A stretch of 63,695 nt of DNA, the filler included, from Collodictyon triciliatum (taxonomy: Eukaryota): assembly GCA_043381765.1 (NCBI GenBank). It is 6 parts of 6 records of this genome, joined end to end, with 100 filler letters (N's around TTAATTAATTAA, not from the genome) between each part and the next. Parts side by side here need not be neighbours in the genome. Positions count along the whole stretch, not along the records: positions 1 to 28,079 come from JBHJMP010000400.1; 5 more parts are not named here. The stretch is one strand, 5' to 3'. Of this stretch, positions 14,633-44,818 are shown piece by piece. The notes beneath the pieces were generated by a model. It was given only the letters and a program-made list of their open reading frames with translations. It was not told the DNA's origin and did no database searches. Made by a program: the position numbers and the translations under genes. Every line of letters starts with the position of its first letter. Within the stretch, counting starts at the first letter, position 1.

Positions 14633-17017
14633 CCAACTGAGCAGACTGCCCATACCGAATGCGGCATCCCTGATTCAGCAGGAGGAAAAGGAGATTCCGG
14701 GTTGCTTGTGCCGCGAAAGGTATTGTACCTCCTCTGGAGACAAAGAAGAGATAATAGATGTAAAAAAAAAATGACACATGCTTGTATGAGTGAGTGACGA
14801 ATTTTGTTCCTGATATTTCCTTTTTTTTCTTTTTGTTGATGTTGATAATGGTAGGTCTCCCGGTTCTGGCTGCCTGATTCCAATGGTGTAACGCACGAGT
14901 TCCTCTTGGTTACCTTTGATGAGCCTGTCCCTATGTCGCTTCAGCCCCATGTTAGCACTAAGGGGTCGTCGCCAACCCACTCTCCATCTGCAGCTGCAGA
15001 GGATATCGGGTCGAGGATTCGCCTGGGATTGAGCGTGCTAAGCTCCATCATCAAGGTTTGTCTGTCGTAGCCCTTTTGCTTGACGGATCTTTACTTTTCT
15101 CTTTTGATAATATTCGTTTTAGAGTCATATCTATATGACAAATCCTATTGGTTTATGATAGGGGTTCGTAATTATACCAAGAAATGCCCAGGATAACAAC
15201 TACTTTTTCATTTCATTTCAATACTCTTGCGCTAATCATTTGCTTATTCATTTTGGTTCCACTTCAAAGTTTCCCTTTGGTAATCATGAGTCTTTTTTGT
15301 CTTTGTATTGTTCGTAGGACACCGCAGATGCTATGATTACCATCACGGCAAACGGGACAGTTGTCTCTTTCAATCCTGCTGCTTCAAGAATATTTGGTTA
15401 TCAAACATCCGAAATCGTGGGGCAGAATATAAATATTCTAATGCCCGAGCCTCACAGGTTTTTTCTTTTACTGATGCAAACAAGAAATTGTAACATACAC
15501 CAAATCATTGTGGGTACACCTTACTTTTATTATAGCACATTTCATCTAAGCGTTTGTCTTTGGTTTCTCTTTCTTGGTCTCATATTCCATTGATTATTAG
15601 GGAAAACCACGATTCATACTTGAGGAATTACCAGGCCACTGGAGAGGCCAAGATTATTGGAGTTGGTCGAGAAGTGGTCGCAGTCACGAAAGAGGGTGAA
15701 ATGATACCAATTCATTTATCCGTCAGTGAGATTAAACTGCAAGACTCTATATTCTATGCGTAAGTGGCACCATCCAACTATAGCCCTTGGTATACATACA
15801 CTATTCATAATTTTTTCTCTTGCTTCGACGCACTGTTATGCCACATTTATGGCTATCAATTTGATGTCTCCTGATGTCTGACACAGAGGAATTCTGCGAG
15901 ACTTAAGAGAGGTGAAGAAAGCAGAAGCCTCCGTCGCAAAGGAGCACGCTTTGCTTGCTTCGATTATGGACGCTGCAAACGATGCTATTCTAACTATCAC
16001 TGGGAACGGAATCATCGTGTCGCTGAACAAAGCAGCCTGCTCCATCTTTGGCTATAAGCAGGCAGAGTTGATTGGACAGAATATCAAAAAGCTGATGCCA
16101 GCGCCATACAGACAGCAGCACGACGAGTATTTGAGCGAGTATCTACGCACGGGTAACTCAGAACCTTATTGTCTAGAACAGAAAAAAAATGTATAAGGAC
16201 AAAATACACATATTCGATAAAATATGAGGGGATTAGAAATCCATTATCCTGCACAAAATTGAAAGGAAGATTAAAAACAGAATAAAAATAAGGAGATTAG
16301 AATAAACCGTACCATACTTTGAGTTTTCCCCTAAGAGCATGACAACCCCAGGAAAGGCCAAAATCATCGGCATTGGAAGAGAGGTTGTCTGCCAGAGGAA
16401 AGACCTGTCTGAGTTCCCAGCTGATCTGAGCGTCAGCGAAGTCCGCGTCGGAGACAATGTCTTTTTCACGTAAGGAACCCCACCACAAAACTGTTCTGCC
16501 ACAACCAATCCATTTCTCTCTCGACTGTGGCACATTCTCTCGACCTGCGCGTGATGCAGCCATCGCTCAGCAAGAGGCCTTCTCTTCTCAGCACTCACCC
16601 ACTCCTTCCAGGGGCATCCTGCGAGACCTCACGGAGCGTAAGAAGGCCGATTCCCAGATTGCCAAAGGGGATGCCATCGTGCGAGAAGTGCTGATGAAAT
16701 CGGAGCTGCTGACAAAAATCAGCAACATGTTTGGGGAGAAGGAAAGCGTGGCTGCGGTGGCGGAGGAGTTCAAACTCAAGATTGCAGACGTAACATCCGA
16801 GATGGAGAAGCAGTTTGCGCTGATCCAGCGGCGCCTGTCGGAGAACGAGGGCAGGCTCCGGAGGCAAGAGAGCAGCCTCAAGGCCGTGGATCAATCCGTG
16901 CGCCGGTGGGTGGGCTTCAAGCAAGAAACCTACTCCAAGCTGGTGAGTGTGCTGGACTCTGCCTTTCAAGGGATTCATCTGTCCCAATTCCCGCAGGCAA
17001 GTGCAGCCGAAGATTGA
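14633..17017 (+). CDS. Protein with two tandem FixL-type heme-PAS domains and a C-terminal coiled coil (5' end in gap)
   Basis: PAS1 reads [57 protein letters not shown]. PAS2 reads [42 protein letters not shown]. Introns are GT-AG and the stop is TGA at 17015-17017. Confidence 0.88.
16227..16302 (+). mobile_element. LINE A 3'-UTR micro-insertion (PAS gene intron)
   Basis: CCATTATCCTGCACAAAATTGAAAGGAAG plus an A-rich tail between AGG(G/A)GATTAGAA repeats. Confidence 0.75.
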
Positions 17018-17461
17018 CGTGACCACCCCGGAAAGGAGAACGCTTTTGCACAGCTGTAAAGAAAAGTGCGCATGGCGACAAAAAAGAAGGCAAGAAGAAG
17101 GATTGGTACATCCGTGCACGGTTGATATTGAATATGCCTTACCTTTGTCGCTTTTATATTTAGATATACTTTCGAATATGTGATATGTCACGTTCCCCTT
17201 TTTTTGTTCTTTTTTTTTCTCCTCACCACCTGGTGCATTCACTTGAAAGCAAAACCACGATGAATTCGTTGATGGTATTTTCCGACTCATCCGTCGAAAC
17301 CCTCCTCGCCTTGGAATCCAACCCCGTCACGTCGGGAATGGATTGATTTGTACTGTCACACCGCAATAAAATGATTGTGCTGATGAACGATACTTATCCC
17401 TCATTCCCTTTCGTGATAGGCACACGCGCGGCAAAAGCCGGAAAAAGTCTCTCAACAATCC

Positions 17462-18060
17462 ACACTTTGCAGCAACGGTGATGAATCCATTGGGCACACA
17501 TTTGTGCAATGTCCCTTCGCTCAAAACCTGCGCAAAACAGCCAGCGAGATTCTTCGACTGACACTTAAGACGACTGCGGCTTTTGGCCCAATCCAGGCGA
17601 TATTTGGCCCTCTGCAACAACTGCGTCCAGAGGCAAAAACATTCTGGGCAGTGACGCGAGGCCATTTGCTATGGACTATGTGGATAGCACGCATATACTT
17701 ACGCAAAGCAAGACTCAACAACCAGCCACCCATTCCTGATAACAGGCTGAATGACATCATACAAATCTCTTTCCTCAATAGCTTCCTTTGCTACCTGCAC
17801 GTTCTCTACTACTCAGACCCCGTGAGAAGAGACATATGTGAAAGGAGGCTGAGAAAGGTGATTAAACCTCGCCTTGTATCCCTCATGCAAGCACAAGACC
17901 CAGGCTACAGGCCAAAGTGCTGCAGGATGCAATTCCTGATAACAGACTACTTCTCCGCCACCCGGCCACCAAGTAGCGCCCATGCAAGCGATGGCTGGCG
18001 AACCAAAGCAAATATCTTCACCATCCTGCACAAAATTGGGGAAGAAGAATAAGAAAAGAA
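17462..18060 (+). mobile_element. 5'-truncated non-LTR retrotransposon (LINE family A): ORF2 C-terminus plus 3' UTR and A-rich tail
   Basis: Starts within the CCHC/zf-RVT motif (LCSNGDESIGHTFVQC). It is nearly colinear with the copy at 57445-58029 and homologous to the C-terminus of the RT ORF at 38654-39913. Confidence 0.88.
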
Positions 18061-18699
18061 AGAGGAAAGCTGCTTTTGGTAATGCACCAACATCTCCTTT
18101 GAAGACTACTTTCATACTCTCCTTCAGTCTCAATGACAAGAGGCACTCGCACTTTGGAATAATCATCCTCATGAAATTCGTTGCTATTTAGCAAATGGGG
18201 ATGTGGCTGATTGGACTCTGTGAGGGGAATGGAGAGATTCATCAAAATGAAAAATAGGTATACGGAGAGTCAAATATACGCCATTCAAAAGTGAATGACA
18301 TGCCTCATCGAGTTGTCAAACAAGACATCATATCAGGAATAGACTGACGATAGTACAAATATACATGACAGTTTGAATAAATATTAAAAGGAAAGGAAAG
18401 GAAAGGAAAGAGAAAAAATAAAGGAAAGGAAAGGAAAGGAAATGAAAGGCGATACGTAGTTAACACTCGTCCTCAATCTCAATATAAACTAGCGAAATAA
18501 GACAGATACACATCCCTGCCTCCTTTCTTTTTTCCTTTCTTCGATGTATATTAGATTTGTTAAATAAGTACTTTAAAAGGAAACAAAAACGGAATAAAAA
18601 TCCAACATTTCCTTTGAACGTTGTTATTGGAATAATCATAAATATTTTTTTTTGTTTTCTTGCTCTTCTGGTTTAGTTTAAAGTATTTTTTTTTGAGGG

Positions 18700-28908: not shown

Positions 28909-32218
<3,310 letters not shown>

Positions 32219-36451: not shown

Positions 36452-38183
36452 TTAATCGAAGTTGACTGCAAACCACAATGGATGAATGAATATAAAATCG
36501 CATAGCCCACTATTATAATTACAAGCTATACACCAAAACAATTTCTTCATCATGGATTGATTTATATATTCAGTTAAGGCCGCCACAGATGGGAATTCTA
36601 GGCTGGCATATTCTTTGATTTTCCTTGAGAGTATCTCCATCATTATCTAGAATGGATGTGATCTCTTTTGAATCAGGTGATTCCATCCATTAGATGTGGC
36701 TGTTAAACATGCCGGGGATATCTGGCGTGTGAACAGCAACGAATACACTGAGCAGTTTCCCTTCTATAAGTGTAATATCTCTGTAGAAAAAAGTACTGAT
36801 GTGCTCGCACTTTCCAATCAAACAACGGAATCTGCTTGTTATCTGAATGCAGACTGGATTTAAATATTCAATTTTCCCCCCTTTTGTTCGATTCAAAGGA
36901 ATCTGGATATTCATTTAATAGACTTTCTCACATTTTCCAAAATATTGTCTTGTGTACCACTGTTACAACAATAACAACACCAACAAATACAACTATAATA
37001 ACAGTATCAAAAATATTGGCAAAACAAGTGGCAAACCACTATAAAGTAAAAGAATTTAAAGTTACGAAATCATCTCCAGGCTCTGCCAATCGAGCCATTT
37101 TGATGTTTGCGGCGACCACATAATTTAGTTTGATATTCGTGAGTGATTCAATTAGAATATGTAAATTGATGTAAAAAAAAAAAGCAGAGAAAGAAGAGAC
37201 TTCAGTATTATATCGAACCAGGTTCTCCGTGGCAATCATAAATGAACCGATGATTCCCTATGAAGTCGGCATTGCCACATGAGGTTATCATAGAAGTACA
37301 AACAAAGAAACAAAGAAACAAAGAAACAAAGAAACAAAGAAACAAAAATATTCAATTACAAAAACCTATTAAACCAAAAACAGTTAATCCATAATCAACC
37401 GAAATGCTAAACTTTAGTCCTTCATATTCCCTAGTCTTGCTGAGGCAGACCATCACTCACTTTACCTGACCATTTCCATTACACCAGTCCGTTAACTATG
37501 ATATTAAATACATGTTATAGCTGATTATTATTATTATTATTAATGATTTTCGTTTGCCTTACCCGAAAAGAAAACTCATGACATCTCTCTGAAATGTGTG
37601 TAGCGTCTGATTTGGAAAATTCTTTTTCTCTTGGGATAACCTACGTTTTGTGAAATAATTGTTTGCATAAGAACCAAAGCCAACATCTCCACCATCCTGC
37701 ACAAAATTGAAAGGAAGAATAAAAAAAATAAATTATTTGCATAAGAATTAATGGGAAAAAACAGTGAATATTCTATTGGATTGCATAATGGATATATTAA
37801 TAGGAAAGCAAATACATACAATTGCAAAACTACTCGATAACTTGATATCATCCATCCCGAAAGAATCCGATATGGTTTCAATTATTTTCACAATATCTAG
37901 TAAGCTTTATTAAGTACCTCTTTGGATGGGATTCACACAAATATGATTTTATTCGTAACATCGTGAAGAAAACATATTGAATTTTATAATAAATCTACAC
38001 ACCTGAAATCATATCGAAATGTTTTCTTTCTGTAGACAAACAACCTTAATGAAAAGAACATTTGAGCAATGCCATTACAACACAGGTTTCAGAAATTGTT
38101 TGGCTTGAAGAGTGTTTAATTCTTTTGAGTTGCAGAATAGGTCATCGTTAGCACTGACAACAAAGCTTCTTCATTCTTTTCAT
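36452..38183 (-). CDS. Unidentified small multi-exon protein
   Basis: A chain of phase-compatible GT-AG exons gives ..STERKHFDMISDIVKIIETISDSFG..SFAIVIPREKEF..FSFRLTDWCNGNGQGIIGSFMIATENL.. No recognisable domain, and both ends are uncertain. Confidence 0.4.
37657..37747 (+). mobile_element. LINE A 3'-UTR micro-insertion (intron of unknown gene)
   Basis: CCAAAGCCAACATCTCCACCATCCTGCACAAAATTGAAAGGAAGAAT(A)n between AATT(G/A)TTTGCATAAGAA repeats (17 bp). Confidence 0.88.
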
Positions 38184-38551: not shown

Positions 38552-40780
38552 TTTTTTTTTCCTTTATTCGATTCAAAGTGTAGCGAGGTTATGCCATACA
38601 AAGGGGCGGGATGGGAGCGCATGGGAGAGAGCAAACGCGAGCAGGAGAAGACACTACCGTGGAGAGGGTAGCACTGGAAAGAAGTCAGTGATAGCGAGTT
38701 GGTCAGGTGGGCGTCCCAACTGGTTGATTGGATGCGTGGGTAGCAGTGGTTGGATGTGCTGTGGAAGATATCGCACGACACATTCCCACATCTCTCTTTG
38801 CTTGCGGTCAGAGTAGCGAAGAATGCGGGCGTGTTCCAGCAGGCTGTTCAGGAAGCTGTATTGCCCGAGGCTTTCAAGCCTGGATACATTGATTTCTCGT
38901 TCGGGTGAATCATTAGAGCGAGTGAATGCACGCACACTCCATAAGGACCACTGCATATGTCCCCTTGTGACTGCCCAGAGCATTCTAGAGTCGTGGGTCA
39001 TTTGGTAATGTGCGCCAAACAGGATGTCAGACGCGCTGAGTCGGCTGGGAGCATAATCAAGCTCAGAGAGCATCTTGTCGGTAGATTCTGTCACTTTTTG
39101 AGCAAGAGAGCACTTCACAAATGTGTGTTCGATAGAGTCATCTCCACTATGGCACATGGTGCATTCTGGAGAGGTCGTTGCTGCATGGACTACGCGCGCA
39201 CCTATCCACAGCTCTCTGTTGGAGATATTGAGAAGTAGGGCGCGGTGCTTCGGGAGTAGCTGAGGTATACGGGCTTGCTTCCAGCTTTTGACTATCGGCG
39301 GGTCTATAATGCCTATAGTTTCGGCCCAACGACTCATTTTCTCCGGTTTGTAGGGATTTGGACTGATGATTTTATATCGAAACAGCTTGGAGTACGCCAT
39401 GGCCATCGAGAATTGCGGAGAGTCAGGTGTAATGGACCGCCTTTGGTTCTTCAGGTGAAAGAAAAATGGCGACGGCGCTCCGTATGAGATGGGACGACGT
39501 GAGCGCCATTCTCCTTTGTTGTTCAGGACGGCTGTGGTTGGGGTTGCATTCGTAGAGTGGAATATCGTTGCATTTTTCGGCGGTGTGAAGCTCCCATCCT
39601 TTTGGAATGTGACTTGTTGCAGGATTAAGGAGCTGTTTCCTTCTCTCGACTTGATGATACAGAAGCCTTTTGCTCTATCCCAGCAAAGCTGGCCTGTAAC
39701 AGCATGCAGTTGGGTAGAATCGCACATTTCACAGTTTTCATACAGAATCTTCCACCGCGCTAGTAGCGGTTCGGGCGTGTTCGGTGGTGGTGATGGGATT
39801 CTGCTCTCACAGAGCTGTGCCTTGAAGTTCGGGCATATGAGATGGATGAGATGCCACATTCCACGCTGCCAGAATCCTTTCGGATGGGTAAGCATATCTG
39901 TCCACCATCTCATCGTGAGCGATGCCTATGAAATGCCAGGCGTTATGAGTCCCAGTCCTCCCTCCGTAGGTGGCTTGGAGAGCGTCTTGATTTTATATTT
40001 TTGATTATTCGTAGTGATGAAGTTGCGACTGATATCTTCCAGCTCCTTCAGCCTTTGGGGATTCAGCAAAGTGCCTTTCATGTTGTAGATAAGGGTCGAC
40101 AACATCACTTGGTTCCACAGCCTTACTTTTCCCACACCCAAGAGATGACAGTTGCTCCACACTGATATTTTCGATTCGATGTCCTCAACCAGACTTGTCC
40201 ATTTGTTATCCGATTGTGGACCGAATATGATACCAAGATACTTGAGTGGATGTGACAGTGGCTTCCACACAATGTTTCCTGGAAACACAAGTCCATCCTG
40301 AAACCCAAAATGAATTCCATCTGTCTTGTCGTAGTTGATTTTCCCGCCGACAGCTCGTGTGTATTCTTGCATGCATTTGTTGGCGAGTGTGGCGCCTTCG
40401 GGAGACCGTATGATGAATGCTGTGTTGTCTGCATATTGAAGTAGCAGTTGGTTGCGCACCTTGTTTTGGTTTCGAAAGTGCTTTGCAAGGCAGTCAGCGA
40501 CAAAGTTGAAGAGCAGTGGCACAAGTGGGCAGCCTTGATACACCCCGCTCTGTCTTTGAATTGCATCCGTAGGTCCGTGTGCCGTGAGTACCCTCGCTGT
40601 TGCATTGTCTTGCAGTTTCTTGATAAGACTGGTGAATCCGGTACAGAAGCCTCTTTTCCGTAGGATGGTTTCCAGTGCTTCGTGGTTCACATAGTCGTAT
40701 GCTTTCTCCAGGTCGTAGAAAATCATAGCGTTGGGTGTCCCGCTTACTTGATATTCCATGTACTCTTTGTTGACAACCCA
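38552..40780 (-). mobile_element. Non-LTR retrotransposon (L1/Tx1-like LINE family B), inactivated ORF2 (RT plus zf-RVT), 3' UTR and poly(A); 5' part lost at contig break
   Basis: RT motifs YDLEKAYDYVNH, GVYQGCPLVPLLF, QYADN (catalytic YADD altered), KINYDKT, KYLG and EGGLGL. CCHC motif CTMCHSGDDSIEHTFVKC. There is an in-frame TAG at 39926-39928. The element ends GAATCGAATAAAGG(A)9. Confidence 0.93.
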
Positions 40781-40913
40781 NNNNNNNNNNNNNNNNNNNN
40801 NNNNNNNNNNNNNNNNNNNNNNNNTTAATTAATTAANNNNNNNNNNNNNNNNNNNNNNNNNNNNNNNNNNNNNNNNNNNNATAATAATGATAATAATAAT
40901 GATAATAATAATG

Positions 40914-40995: not shown

Positions 40996-41128
40996 ACAAA
41001 ACAAAACAAAACAAAACAAAACAAAACAAAACAAAACAAAAAGGAATAAAAAGGAATAAGTAAATGGTAAAATTCACCTTAAGAGTATTAAAAGTCTAAC
41101 AATTCACAACGCGTCGAAAAGGTTGATC

Positions 41129-42540
41129 ATGAGCTCACGGGAGAAAACGTTGGAGGAGGTGTTGGGATTGAATACTGTCAATCAAGTCCAGCCTTTGGAA
41201 GACTACACAAGGTTAGAGATACACGGCAGGAACCTCACACACTTTCCTGAGAGAATCTGTAGTCTCACAAAACTGGTTGAGCTTGCCTTGACGCAAAACA
41301 AATTCTCGGCCATCTCACGGAATATATCAAGGCTCACAAGAATTCAAAAGTTAAACTTATCAAACAATCAGATGTCAACCATACCTGCTGAAATATCGCT
41401 ACTAAGTCATTTAACCAGACTCAGCATTTCGGGCAACAATATATCCCTGCTTCCTCTGGAGCTTTTTAACTTAGTCCGGTTGGCCGACATAAGCGCAGTG
41501 TTGATTCAACTTACCTCCTTACCCAACCTGATTTCAAAGATGCAGCTCTTGTCACGTCTGAATTTATCCAATAATTGCATCCAATCATTGCCCAAAGAAA
41601 TATCACATTTGGTTCGCTTGGAGGAGCTCGACATATCGGAAAACCAACTCACTTCGATACCAATGGAGATGTCTTGTCTGATAAATCTCAAGGAACTTTT
41701 AATGTCTACAAATCAGATTCATTTCTTGCCGAAGGAAATATCGGTTCTTGTTAACCTCACATGGTTGAATATTCGAGATAATAGGCTAACGAATCTTCCA
41801 GATGGAATATCTGGATTGACGCAACTTCGAGATTTTATTTTATCAAATAATTTCATTTCACTCCTTCCCGTAGAGATATCTGGGTTAAAAAGCTTAAGAA
41901 GATTTGATGTGTCATCCAATCCTGTGGTTTTGTTAGGAGATGGAATACCAAGCCTCACACAATTAAAACAACTACTCATCAATAATACGCCTATTTCCTA
42001 TTTACCAGAAAATATTTCTTTTTTAACGCAATTAACTCTGCTTAACATATCCAATATTGGCCTGTCTGCTCTACCGAAATGGATATCAACACTCTCAGAA
42101 ATATTAACACTTGATGTTAGTGGCAACCCGGTAAGACAATGTCTCATGACATGATATTTTCCCTTCTTAGAAAAAAGTTACTAAAACTTTTCTTGCATTT
42201 TTTTTTTTTGCTTCCTTCATCGTTTTCTGTATAAATTTTCGAAAATACTACCATTCAGATGACAGAGTTGCATGCTGCGATAACGAATATGAAACAGCTA
42301 GACCAGCTACAAATCGAGCATCAAGGAATCGTTAATATCGTTAGAGCACCTTACAAATTGACTTGTCTTCCCTGTTGGGAAAATGCATTTATTCCATATG
42401 GCCAAAAAGAGCAGGGGATATCAGCATCTCTGAAGAAATTGCAGCTCTATGGCCCTGTAAGAAAATTCAACTAATTATTTACATACTTATGGAATATTCA
42501 TTTCTTTTGAAAAAAAAGGGGGTGTATTATCTATTTTGTT

Positions 42541-42636
<96 letters not shown>

Positions 42637-42836
42637 TATAAGGAAGATGAAATGATAAATTATGGGTGGAGTCCTTCTATAAGGGACCACAGCATTCTTC
42701 AGCTTAACTTTTCGGCGAGGAAAATATCTTCGTTACCAATGGAAGTGTTCTACTTTACACATTTACTAGAGCTATTCGTTTATGATAACTTGGTATCATT
42801 TTTCATTTAGAGAATTCCTCCTTGAATTTCTAGGTT

Positions 42837-42913
<77 letters not shown>

Positions 42914-44818
42914 TTAAAGACCCTTAATTGACATGCTTACCTTCTTTATTTTTATATTTAAAAAATGATTTAATAGATCGAAGAGCTTCCACCATGGATT
43001 ACAGTGCTTGACAATCTCAAAACCTTGCATATAGAAGATCCAAAATCATGGTTCCCTAAAAGAAAAATACAACTAGTCCCACATGGGTTGGCTAGAATGA
43101 AATGTTGGAATAAGTCGTGGAATGGAAAACTTAAGTTTTACAATTGGGTATCTGCTTTATTTCGCAAATATTTAATTAAATATATTGAATTAGTTGAGCT
43201 ATATTTCACTTTACGTACTATAGGAGGCAGATGCAATAAAGCATGATTGGTTACCTACCGAAAGCGAAATATTGAAGCGAAACTACTTGGATTTTTCAGG
43301 ATTAGGAATAAGACATGTTCCTATTGCAGTGAAGATGCTTGTAAACATGCGCTATCTGAATCTAAACGCTAATCAGGTGGTGTAAATATTGTTTTAATTC
43401 AACCATTATGTGTATTTTATTCTTACGAGGTATGCGCTAAACCAGTTAAGCGAGCTTCCTGCCTCCTTATGTATTCTGACATCGCTCGAGCATCTTCATG
43501 TCTCCAATAATGAGGTATGCCATCTTGCTTTTTTTTTTTTGGAATTATGTTCGTATATTTTTTCCTCTAACTTTAACTATTCGAATGTCTCATTTCATAC
43601 ATACATACATACATACATACATACATACATACATACATACATACATACATACATACATACATACATACATACATACATACATACATACATACATACNNNN
43701 NNNNNNNNNNNNNNNNNNNNNNNNNNNNNNNNNNNNNNNNNNNNNNNNNNNNNNNNNNNNNNNNNNNNNNNNNNNNNNNNNNNNNNNNNNNNNNNNATAC
43801 ATACATACATACATACATACATACATACATACATACATACATACATACATACATACATACATACATACATACATACATACATACATACATACATCTGTGC
43901 TTTCTAGTTCCTTTTTTTTTTTTTTTTTGTATCACAGCATTATCAACAAAAAAAATGTCAGATAACCAGCCTTCCTGAAGATATGATCGCCTTTCAAAAG
44001 CTTAAAACTTTTACGGCTAATACCAATAAAGTATGTTTCATACCATCCAAAAAAAATATCAACGAGTCAATAATTGACCCCTCACTTACACAAAATTAGA
44101 TTACTAGTATTCCAGAAGCTGTTTGTGGGATATTAACGATAGAATCGATTGATTTGTCACATAATCATGTAAGAGCTTTTTTTTTTTTTACTTTAAAAAA
44201 TGTGATGGAAATAACGGCTTCAAATTTTGACTGTAACCATATTACTAGATATCAAGCCTTCCTAATTTGCAGGAACTAAAAAATTTAAGTTCTCTATCAC
44301 TTGAGGATAATTACTTTTCAGAATCTGCACAATACTTTCTTGATTGTGTAGAGATATGCCGAAATGAAATTGATTGTTCCAGAAGGTCGATTCTTGAAAT
44401 ACCTGAGGAACTCATATTCTTACCAAAAAAGCCGAGGCTGAACATATCGAAAAATAGGGTGAAGCGTTCTTTTATTTTTTTCTCGTTTTTTTTTATTAAT
44501 GTAAAAAATGAAATAAAAAATAAGAAAATGTAGTATTATTATGGGTTTAAACTGTTCCGAACTCTTTTAGATTAAAAATCTGCCAGAATGCTTGTTTACG
44601 ATGACATGGATTGAAATATTAGATGTCTCAGATAATTTAATTGTTTAGTCCCATCATCAGTCCCGTTTTCTTCTCCTTTTTTCCTCGCAGAATGTACTGA
44701 TCGGTGTATCAGCATAATTCTTTTTACGCCGAAACATTCATCTATAATCAAAAGCAACAAATTTCGTCCGCAAGCTATCGAGTCGAAAGTTGAAGAAATC
44801 ATCAATAAAGCCTCATGA
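41129..44818 (+). CDS. Large leucine-rich repeat protein (23-aa typical LRRs)
   Basis: A 1-kb first exon carries about 13 LxxLxLSxNxLxxLPxEI repeats, followed by phase-0 GT-AG exons with more LRRs. The last exon is uncertain. Confidence 0.85.

Follow-up and report, generated by a model that had tools for sequence, protein, structure and literature searches.

Among the closest described counterparts of the element reported here is the human L1 retrotransposon, for which a requirement for PCNA is established (PMC10830420, PMC5371812, PMC7617806), while the site of contact is disputed between an internal 'PIP helix' and a 'PUB' surface on the wrist (PMC10830420, PMC7617806). To elaborate, the human ORF2p displays a canonical-looking PIP box, delimited as residues 404-419 or 407-415, between the endonuclease domain (EN) and that of the reverse transcriptase (RT), just as the sequence-only reading of the present locus had stated, and this PIP-like helix packs against the palm and fingers (PMC10830420, PMC7617806). 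A 2025 structure paper argues that 407-415 is not the PCNA contact and places the latter instead, with support from pull-downs, on the non-canonical wrist surface (PMC7617806); therefore, a match to the consensus alone can mislead. As to what the clamp might contribute, the cited passages propose that PCNA recruits RNase H2 to human L1 or guides the complex to suitable DNA (PMC10830420, PMC7617806).

The PIP box itself is defined as Q-x-x-[ILM]-x-x-[FY]-[FY] (PMC5371812, PMC8871960), and such motifs typically lie in disordered regions (PMC8871960). A peptide-library study featuring the Pogo-derived QKKITDYF and the Cdt1 peptide QRRVTDFF ties a threonine and an aspartate at positions 5 and 6 (T5-D6, the 'TD' type) to high PCNA affinity (PMC8191301). 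A PIP box that combines TD with a basic residue at position +4 behind the core constitutes the PIP degron, as given in the relevant sections of PMC8871960 and PMC3152358. On the side of mobile elements, transposon enzymes with clamp-binding peptides include those of Pogo, Tigger and Lemi1 along with bacterial IS transposases (PMC5371812). The Pogo transposase binds PCNA via its PIP box, and the functional relevance of that motif remains unclear according to the same review (PMC5371812). Our own literature search, judged mostly by titles and the beginnings of abstracts and conducted for the most part outside subscription journals, turned up no retrotransposon protein described as having a PIP box or PIP degron at its C-terminus.

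The window, by which we mean the whole stretch of 63,695 nucleotides of Collodictyon triciliatum DNA that was analyzed, contains three LINE 3' ends, these being the only ones recovered by tblastn with eight related proteins: two copies of a family A and one of a family B, all of them 5'-truncated or cut by a gap. The two family A copies belong to one repeat family (17468-18064 against 58029-57440, 89.95% identity over 597 bp), and both are truncated downstream of the RT. Copy 1 (17420-18064, +), delimited by its ORF and by the match to copy 2, is a 5'-truncated 3' end with a zf-RVT knuckle, a helical C-terminal domain, a tail, a short 3' UTR and an A-rich end; copy 2 (57440-58029, -), whose 5' side is cut off at 58030 by an N gap, contains one internal stop. 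The ORF of copy 1 (17420-18052; P0001, 210 aa) begins with the Cys/His knuckle, whose match to zf-RVT is weak (residues 10-36, E 3e-4, below the Pfam cut-off), and its frame is broken by one extra A near 17443 relative to metagenome contigs and to P0002, a better-preserved family A member from the databases. Because P0001 retains the knuckle and P0002 has the precomputed domain PF13966 (zf-RVT), the family A copies are assigned, in accord with the sequence-only reading, as the 3' ends of a non-LTR retrotransposon ORF2. A host gene with repeated PAS domains (15318-17017, +; PAS fold E 6.7e-14 for 15882-16196) precedes copy 1 in the same orientation, some 400 bp away; the stretch MP.P....HD.YL..Y..TG of this gene resembles FixL-type sensor PAS domains.

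Both copies encode the PIP-degron-like peptide that had been attributed to them from the sequence: in copy 1, caa ttc ctg ata aca gac tac ttc tcc gcc acc cgg (17930-17965, +) yields QFLITDYFSATR, and in copy 2 the counterpart, caa ttc ctg att acc gat tac ttc tcc acc acc cgg (57573-57538, -), yields QFLITDYFSTTR. The core QFLITDYF (17930-17953, + in copy 1; 57550-57573, - in copy 2) differs by three synonymous changes between the two. It is followed in copy 1 by SATR (17954-17965, +), with the basic residue at +4 completing the literal PIP-degron pattern, and in copy 2 by STTR. The core fits Q-x-x-[ILM]-x-x-[FY]-[FY] with T5 and D6 in place, so that the claim of a literal PIP box with TD and an arginine at +4 holds for family A under the definitions given in the cited parts of PMC5371812 and PMC8871960.

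The position of this peptide within the protein depends on where the ORF ends. In copy 1, TGG at 17996-17998 (+) lets the frame run on for 18 codons, as far as 18052; the equivalent triplet of copy 2 is TAG, and the database proteins P0024, P0027 and P0010 stop there as well, after ...HA(N/K)(D/N)G. Further, in the aligned metagenome contigs A in place of G at 17997 is the majority state in all four runs (depth for A 4.63/4.63, 41/45, 2.2/2.2 and 12.6/15.6), and loose contig ends past 18038 enter A tracts, reading AAAGGAAGAATAAAAAAAAAA.... On these grounds, the stop of family A is TAG at 17996-17998, mutated in copy 1. The ORF2 of the family thus ends in ...QFLITDYFSATRPPSSVHANDG, and 14 residues separate the core from the true C-terminus, the protein closing with QFLITDYF-SATRPPSSVHANDG before the stop; about 50 nt of 3' UTR and then poly(A) follow. 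The placement 'near the ORF2 C-terminus' in the sequence-only reading was accordingly right, and the family TAG sharpens it.

Family B (38552-40780, -), delimited by Pfam matches, ORFs and its 3' end sequence, comprises a partial RT, an in-frame stop at 39923-39925, a zf-RVT, a helical C-terminal domain and a tail; a 3' UTR of about 100 nt and an A run (38552-38560) follow, and the 5' side is cut by a gap at 40781. The upstream part matches RVT_1 (E 3.4e-17), and the 423-codon frame at 38654-39925 (P0013) matches zf-RVT (E 1.6e-7); upstream of it, beyond a single in-frame stop, lies another frame of 300 codons. A six-frame scan located the core QLAITDFF (38678-38701, -), which closes the 423-codon frame together with PVLPSPR and a stop at 38654-38656, giving the C-terminal end QLAITDFFPVLPSPR. 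The homology between families A and B spans the knuckle through the tail, with about 29-34% of residues identical. As a side note, this diverged, L1-like copy of family B has only one in-frame stop in about 2.2 kb and is apparently inserted beside an LRR gene (41060-42154, +).

Relatives outside the window were sought in several collections. With P0001 as query, HMMER searched 1.84 billion representatives and recovered 10 proteins with E <= 0.001; a word-indexed search with alignment A1 narrowed 3124 candidates to 13 proteins, with no new tails, and 8 further members came from the 90% clusters of eight of the proteins so recovered. A search for near relatives of P0001 returned one protein, lacking the tail, and the protein search found no longer relatives of P0001. 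In the JGI metagenome contigs, a protein-pattern scan produced 131 pattern matches with 0 confirmed, and a 21-nt exact pattern produced 0 matches; in the ESM Atlas, the hits were clusters with zf-RVT in part of their members (16%, 70% and 24% in the three best) and one cluster without a common family. Two of the lineages so recovered end like families A and B: P0003 in QSVITNFFSIIPNPG (47% identical) and P0005/P0022 in QTAITD[FY]FAVLHPPSNP (35% identical). The zf-RVT is above the Pfam cut-off in P0013, P0003 and P0005, and the stop comes 7-9 residues behind the core in B, P0003 and P0005. These relatives are short ORFs on environmental contigs of at most 2.1 kb, possibly from one species or a few close ones; therefore, the five lineages considered below are paralogous LINE lineages and not five hosts. 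Among the window copies and database relatives we saw no full-length or demonstrably active copy, and the APE-type endonuclease region lies beyond the reach of every one of them.

Sixteen tail-reaching sequences were aligned, 14 of which are assessable, P0011 being left out of the tally because its insertion starts within the motif and P0021 because its frame is lost before it. A canonical PIP box is present in 11 of the 14 assessable tails and in four of the five lineages, with TD in nine of the canonical tails and TN in two. Seven of them are from family A (QFLITDYF in six, QFLITNYF in one), and the remaining cores are QSVITNFF in P0003, QTAITDFF in P0005, QTAITDYF in P0022 and QLAITDFF in B. 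In family B and two database lineages, Q-x-x-I-T-[DN]-[FY]-F is thus retained at the equivalent position, a stronger conservation than had been claimed from the two family A copies. The three non-canonical tails are those of P0004, one residue short, P0007 (QTLLLISF) and P0006 (QYFNTPFF); the last is the sole representative of its lineage, in which the motif may be dispensable, or the copy may have decayed. In P0011, an NCBI-sourced predicted ORF, the inserted family A sequence starts partway through the motif (...F-SATRPPSSAHANDG) and the family stop is read as a sense codon; it exemplifies a very short 5'-truncated family A copy fused into another frame.

How much weight a match of this kind can bear was gauged with 300 shuffles and with how often each residue occurs in the six-frame translation of the window itself (123,175 positions). 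The bare PIP consensus is expected 9.3 times per window and observed 14 times; because it is so common, it means nothing by itself, and the weight of the sequence evidence is placed on the TD-type core and its conservation. The core Q..IT[DN][FY]F is expected 0.008 times per window (4 occurrences in total in the 300 shuffles) and observed three times, and the degron pattern Q..[ILMV]TD[FY][FY]...[KR] is expected 0.002 times (none in the 300 shuffles) and observed twice.

Conservation, measured as pairwise identity with one representative per lineage (A, P0003, P0005, B and P0006), drops and then rises again along the C-terminus. The folded part has 247 of 624 identical pairs (39.6%), the 28 linker columns behind an invariant Trp 31 of 280 (11.1%), the eight motif columns 46 of 80 (57.5%) and the seven columns past the motif 16 of 70 (22.9%). 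Q1, T5 and F8 are invariant across the five representatives, and the motif window ranks sixth among 102 eight-column windows, ranks 1-5 all falling in one block of the folded core. The spacing from the invariant Trp to the Q is near-constant (28, 31, 28, 28 and 30 residues in the five representatives); therefore, the motif is positionally homologous rather than an alignment artifact. We take a conserved core within a diverged linker to be the pattern of a selected short linear motif, in this case one that looks like a 'TD' PIP box of the p21/Pogo type. The codons tell of the level at which selection probably acts. Across copy 1, copy 2 and B, the Ile is encoded by ATA/ATT/ATC, the Thr by ACA/ACC/ACT, the Asp by GAC/GAT/GAC and the last Phe by TTC/TTC/TTT. 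Between the two family A copies, the core shows three synonymous and no non-synonymous differences, as against 16 synonymous and 24 non-synonymous differences (omega 0.43) in the whole shared ORF, the within-family codon evidence amounting to three substitutions and thus to small numbers. Among the better-supported differences in the metagenome contigs, a set apart from 58 less-supported ones, just two fall in the core, namely 17941 A>T and 17944 A>C; each is synonymous and represents the majority state, which falls short of proving invariance. Together, these patterns suggest that selection acts on the core at the protein level. A signal at the RNA or DNA level was considered and rejected, because the residues are kept while synonymous codons vary among the three copies. 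Separately, a Pro at +6 (column 428 of alignment A1; 17969-17971 in copy 1, 38660-38662 in B) is invariant in the five lineages though +1 to +5 vary; the PIP and degron rules as laid out in the cited sections of PMC5371812, PMC8871960 and PMC3152358 do not account for it.

The structural setting was approached with an AlphaFold2 model of the last 228 residues of B, built on 12 aligned sequences (mean pLDDT 61.5). It has a helical domain at about 57-200 (block mean pLDDT 70-91) and a tail at 202-228 with pLDDT <50, within which a short helix (214-218) corresponds to the QLAIT of the motif. The model thus predicts a disordered tail for B, and from its homology with B we infer the same for the tail of family A. 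Foldseek with this model against the PDB found nothing at E <= 0.001. In a full-library structural alignment (VIA), prenyltransferase helices came out on top (Z 8.5-9.0) and human L1 ORF2p (9hdo_A) third, with a Z of 7.3 that is middling for helical folds (rmsd 4.6 Å over 140 residues, model 48-205 on 1118-1265, the C-terminal domain with the human CCHC). Because of this middling score, we use the match only as a pointer, and a weak one, to a possibly L1-like C-terminal architecture of B.

The reading that we consider probable is that the motif is a canonical 'TD' PIP box of the high-affinity type, borne on a disordered tail of about 25-35 residues that directly follows the C-terminal domain of an L1-like ORF2 protein, and serving in PCNA docking. 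We read the tail as a putative PCNA tether because its core is of the p21/Pogo/Cdt1 type, because transposon-encoded enzymes offer precedents and because human L1 needs PCNA. In function, such a tether would be analogous to the human interaction, yet its build would be that of a canonical disordered peptide. From the motif match, its terminal position, its conservation and the predicted disorder, we infer PCNA binding and a role in retrotransposition. Briefly, the tail PIP box would dock the reverse transcriptase/endonuclease on DNA-loaded PCNA, and the docking would bring the retrotransposition complex to, or hold it at, replication forks or repair intermediates. PCNA may also bring helper enzymes to the bound complex, along the lines proposed for human L1.

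Set against the described systems, the element shares with human L1 ORF2p a non-LTR ORF2 and an L1-like build (RT, CCHC/zf-RVT knuckle and helical C-terminal domain). However, the human PIP helix is internal and packed, and its contact is disputed, whereas the motif here is canonical, of the TD type, terminal and predicted to be disordered; human ORF2p is without such a C-terminal tail. With Pogo, Tigger and Lemi1, the element has in common a transposon-encoded enzyme with a canonical PIP box. The Pogo-derived QKKITDYF and the family A QFLITDYF are the same at Q1, I4, T5, D6, Y7 and F8. In Pogo, too, the PIP motif is C-terminal, but the protein is a DNA transposase and not a reverse transcriptase. 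Bacterial transposases and TnsE are alike in being mobile-element enzymes with a short clamp-binding peptide that couples transposition to replication (PMC5371812), and unlike in that they address the beta sliding clamp with a QL[SD]LF-type motif and employ a different transposition chemistry. If the docking reading is true, the roll of clamp-binding mobile elements (Pogo, bacterial IS transposases and TnsE) would gain a retrotransposon with a canonical motif. Clamp capture would then appear as a recurrent need of target-primed reverse transcription that is met by different structural solutions, and the tail would offer a simple peptide-level system in which to test the role of PCNA for LINEs.

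The alternative that fares best, though it is still unlikely, holds that the tail docks a partner other than PCNA, be it a reader of FF-type or PIP-like peptides or, by an intramolecular contact, the body of the RT. An island of conservation shows selection and not the identity of the partner. Human ORF2p itself provides a case in which a PIP-like box packs on the palm and fingers while the PCNA surface is proposed elsewhere (PMC10830420, PMC7617806), and the invariant Pro at +6 lies outside every PIP rule in the portions of the sources cited. Against this, all four defining PIP positions are kept along with TD, and the motif sits in a terminal tail predicted to be disordered, where true PIP boxes are usually found (PMC8871960), unlike the buried human helix.

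Also to be weighed is the second half of the original claim, in which recruitment to PCNA and a degron were put forward as one: the PIP box of family A would be a complete CRL4-Cdt2 degron, such that the PCNA-docked ORF2p is ubiquitylated and destroyed, making for a self-limiting element coupled to replication or repair. Docking appears likely from the sequence, as set out above; the degron we regard as quite unlikely, with the basic +4 confined to family A among the lineages with an intact core. In its favor, family A matches Q-x-x-I-T-D-Y-F-x-x-x-R exactly and keeps the +4 Arg in six of its seven canonical tails. Moreover, the transfer of TD and a basic +4 to Fen1, a stable PIP protein, was reported to suffice for its proteolysis via CRL4-Cdt2 in Xenopus (Havens & Walter 2009, cited in PMC3152358), and therefore a literal match has some predictive value. 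Like the CRL4-Cdt2 substrates Cdt1, p21 and Set8, family A has its PIP box in a disordered terminal region and pairs it with TD and a basic +4 (PMC8871960, PMC3152358); unlike in these, its +4 residue is not kept in sister lineages and its +3 residue is not basic. To wit, the sister lineages with an intact core have Pro (B and P0003) or His (P0005/P0022) at +4, and the only basic residue there outside family A is the Lys of P0006, whose core is degenerate. The full pattern appears in five of the 14 assessable tails and in one of the five lineages. Since +1 to +5 otherwise vary freely, drift would be expected to leave a basic residue in a single lineage, and the +4 Arg of family A is most simply seen as a lineage-specific residue in a freely varying flank. 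Further, +3 is Thr in family A, and a basic +3 also matters in human cells, going by the cited part of PMC8871960; in addition, selection would hardly favor a self-destruct signal in a selfish element. The composite scenario, wherein an L1-like clade captured PCNA independently via a terminal PIP box and the gain of the +4 Arg in family A then made a working CRL4-Cdt2 degron, seems to us distinctly improbable. If it were true, a reverse transcriptase destroyed on chromatin after engaging PCNA would constitute a built-in, replication-coupled limiter of retrotransposition. Families A (+4 R) and B (+4 P) form a natural matched pair for the degron reading.

The notion that the motif is functionless, a remnant of common descent in a tail that decays slowly or else a signal at the nucleic-acid level close to the element's 3' end, is very improbable: although all the sequences are fragments of transposable elements, visible decay affects several copies and the data are few, the linker has fallen to 11% identity around a core at 57.5%, third codon positions differ among the three window copies with the residues unchanged, which speaks against an RNA or DNA signal, and a core expected 0.008 times per window occurs three times.

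To our knowledge, 5' truncation is universal in LINEs. The earlier speculation that the motif contributes to the extreme 5' truncation of these insertions is therefore rejected, such truncation being general to LINEs and more probably due to host cleavage of the RNA or of intermediates (PMC10830420).

Some minor features of the window and of the metagenomic data may be recorded here. Fragments of about 60 bp at 30251-30315, 37672-37738 and 55872-55931 are 86-93% identical to one another and to the final ~50-60 bp of copy 2 (57437-57495, in the 3' UTR/tail); they are either extremely 5'-truncated insertions or parts of another repeat that has the LINE 3' tail. Metagenome runs that contain portions of the element carry the labels freshwater, lake and subsurface, their word shares not exceeding 0.24. 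The window is rich in assembly gaps, often as paired 44-N blocks, and at 58130-58280, 42430-42640 and 43600-43900 it includes a poly(A/T) tract of about 150 bp between N gaps, long AAT/ATT runs and a microsatellite of the ACATACAT type.
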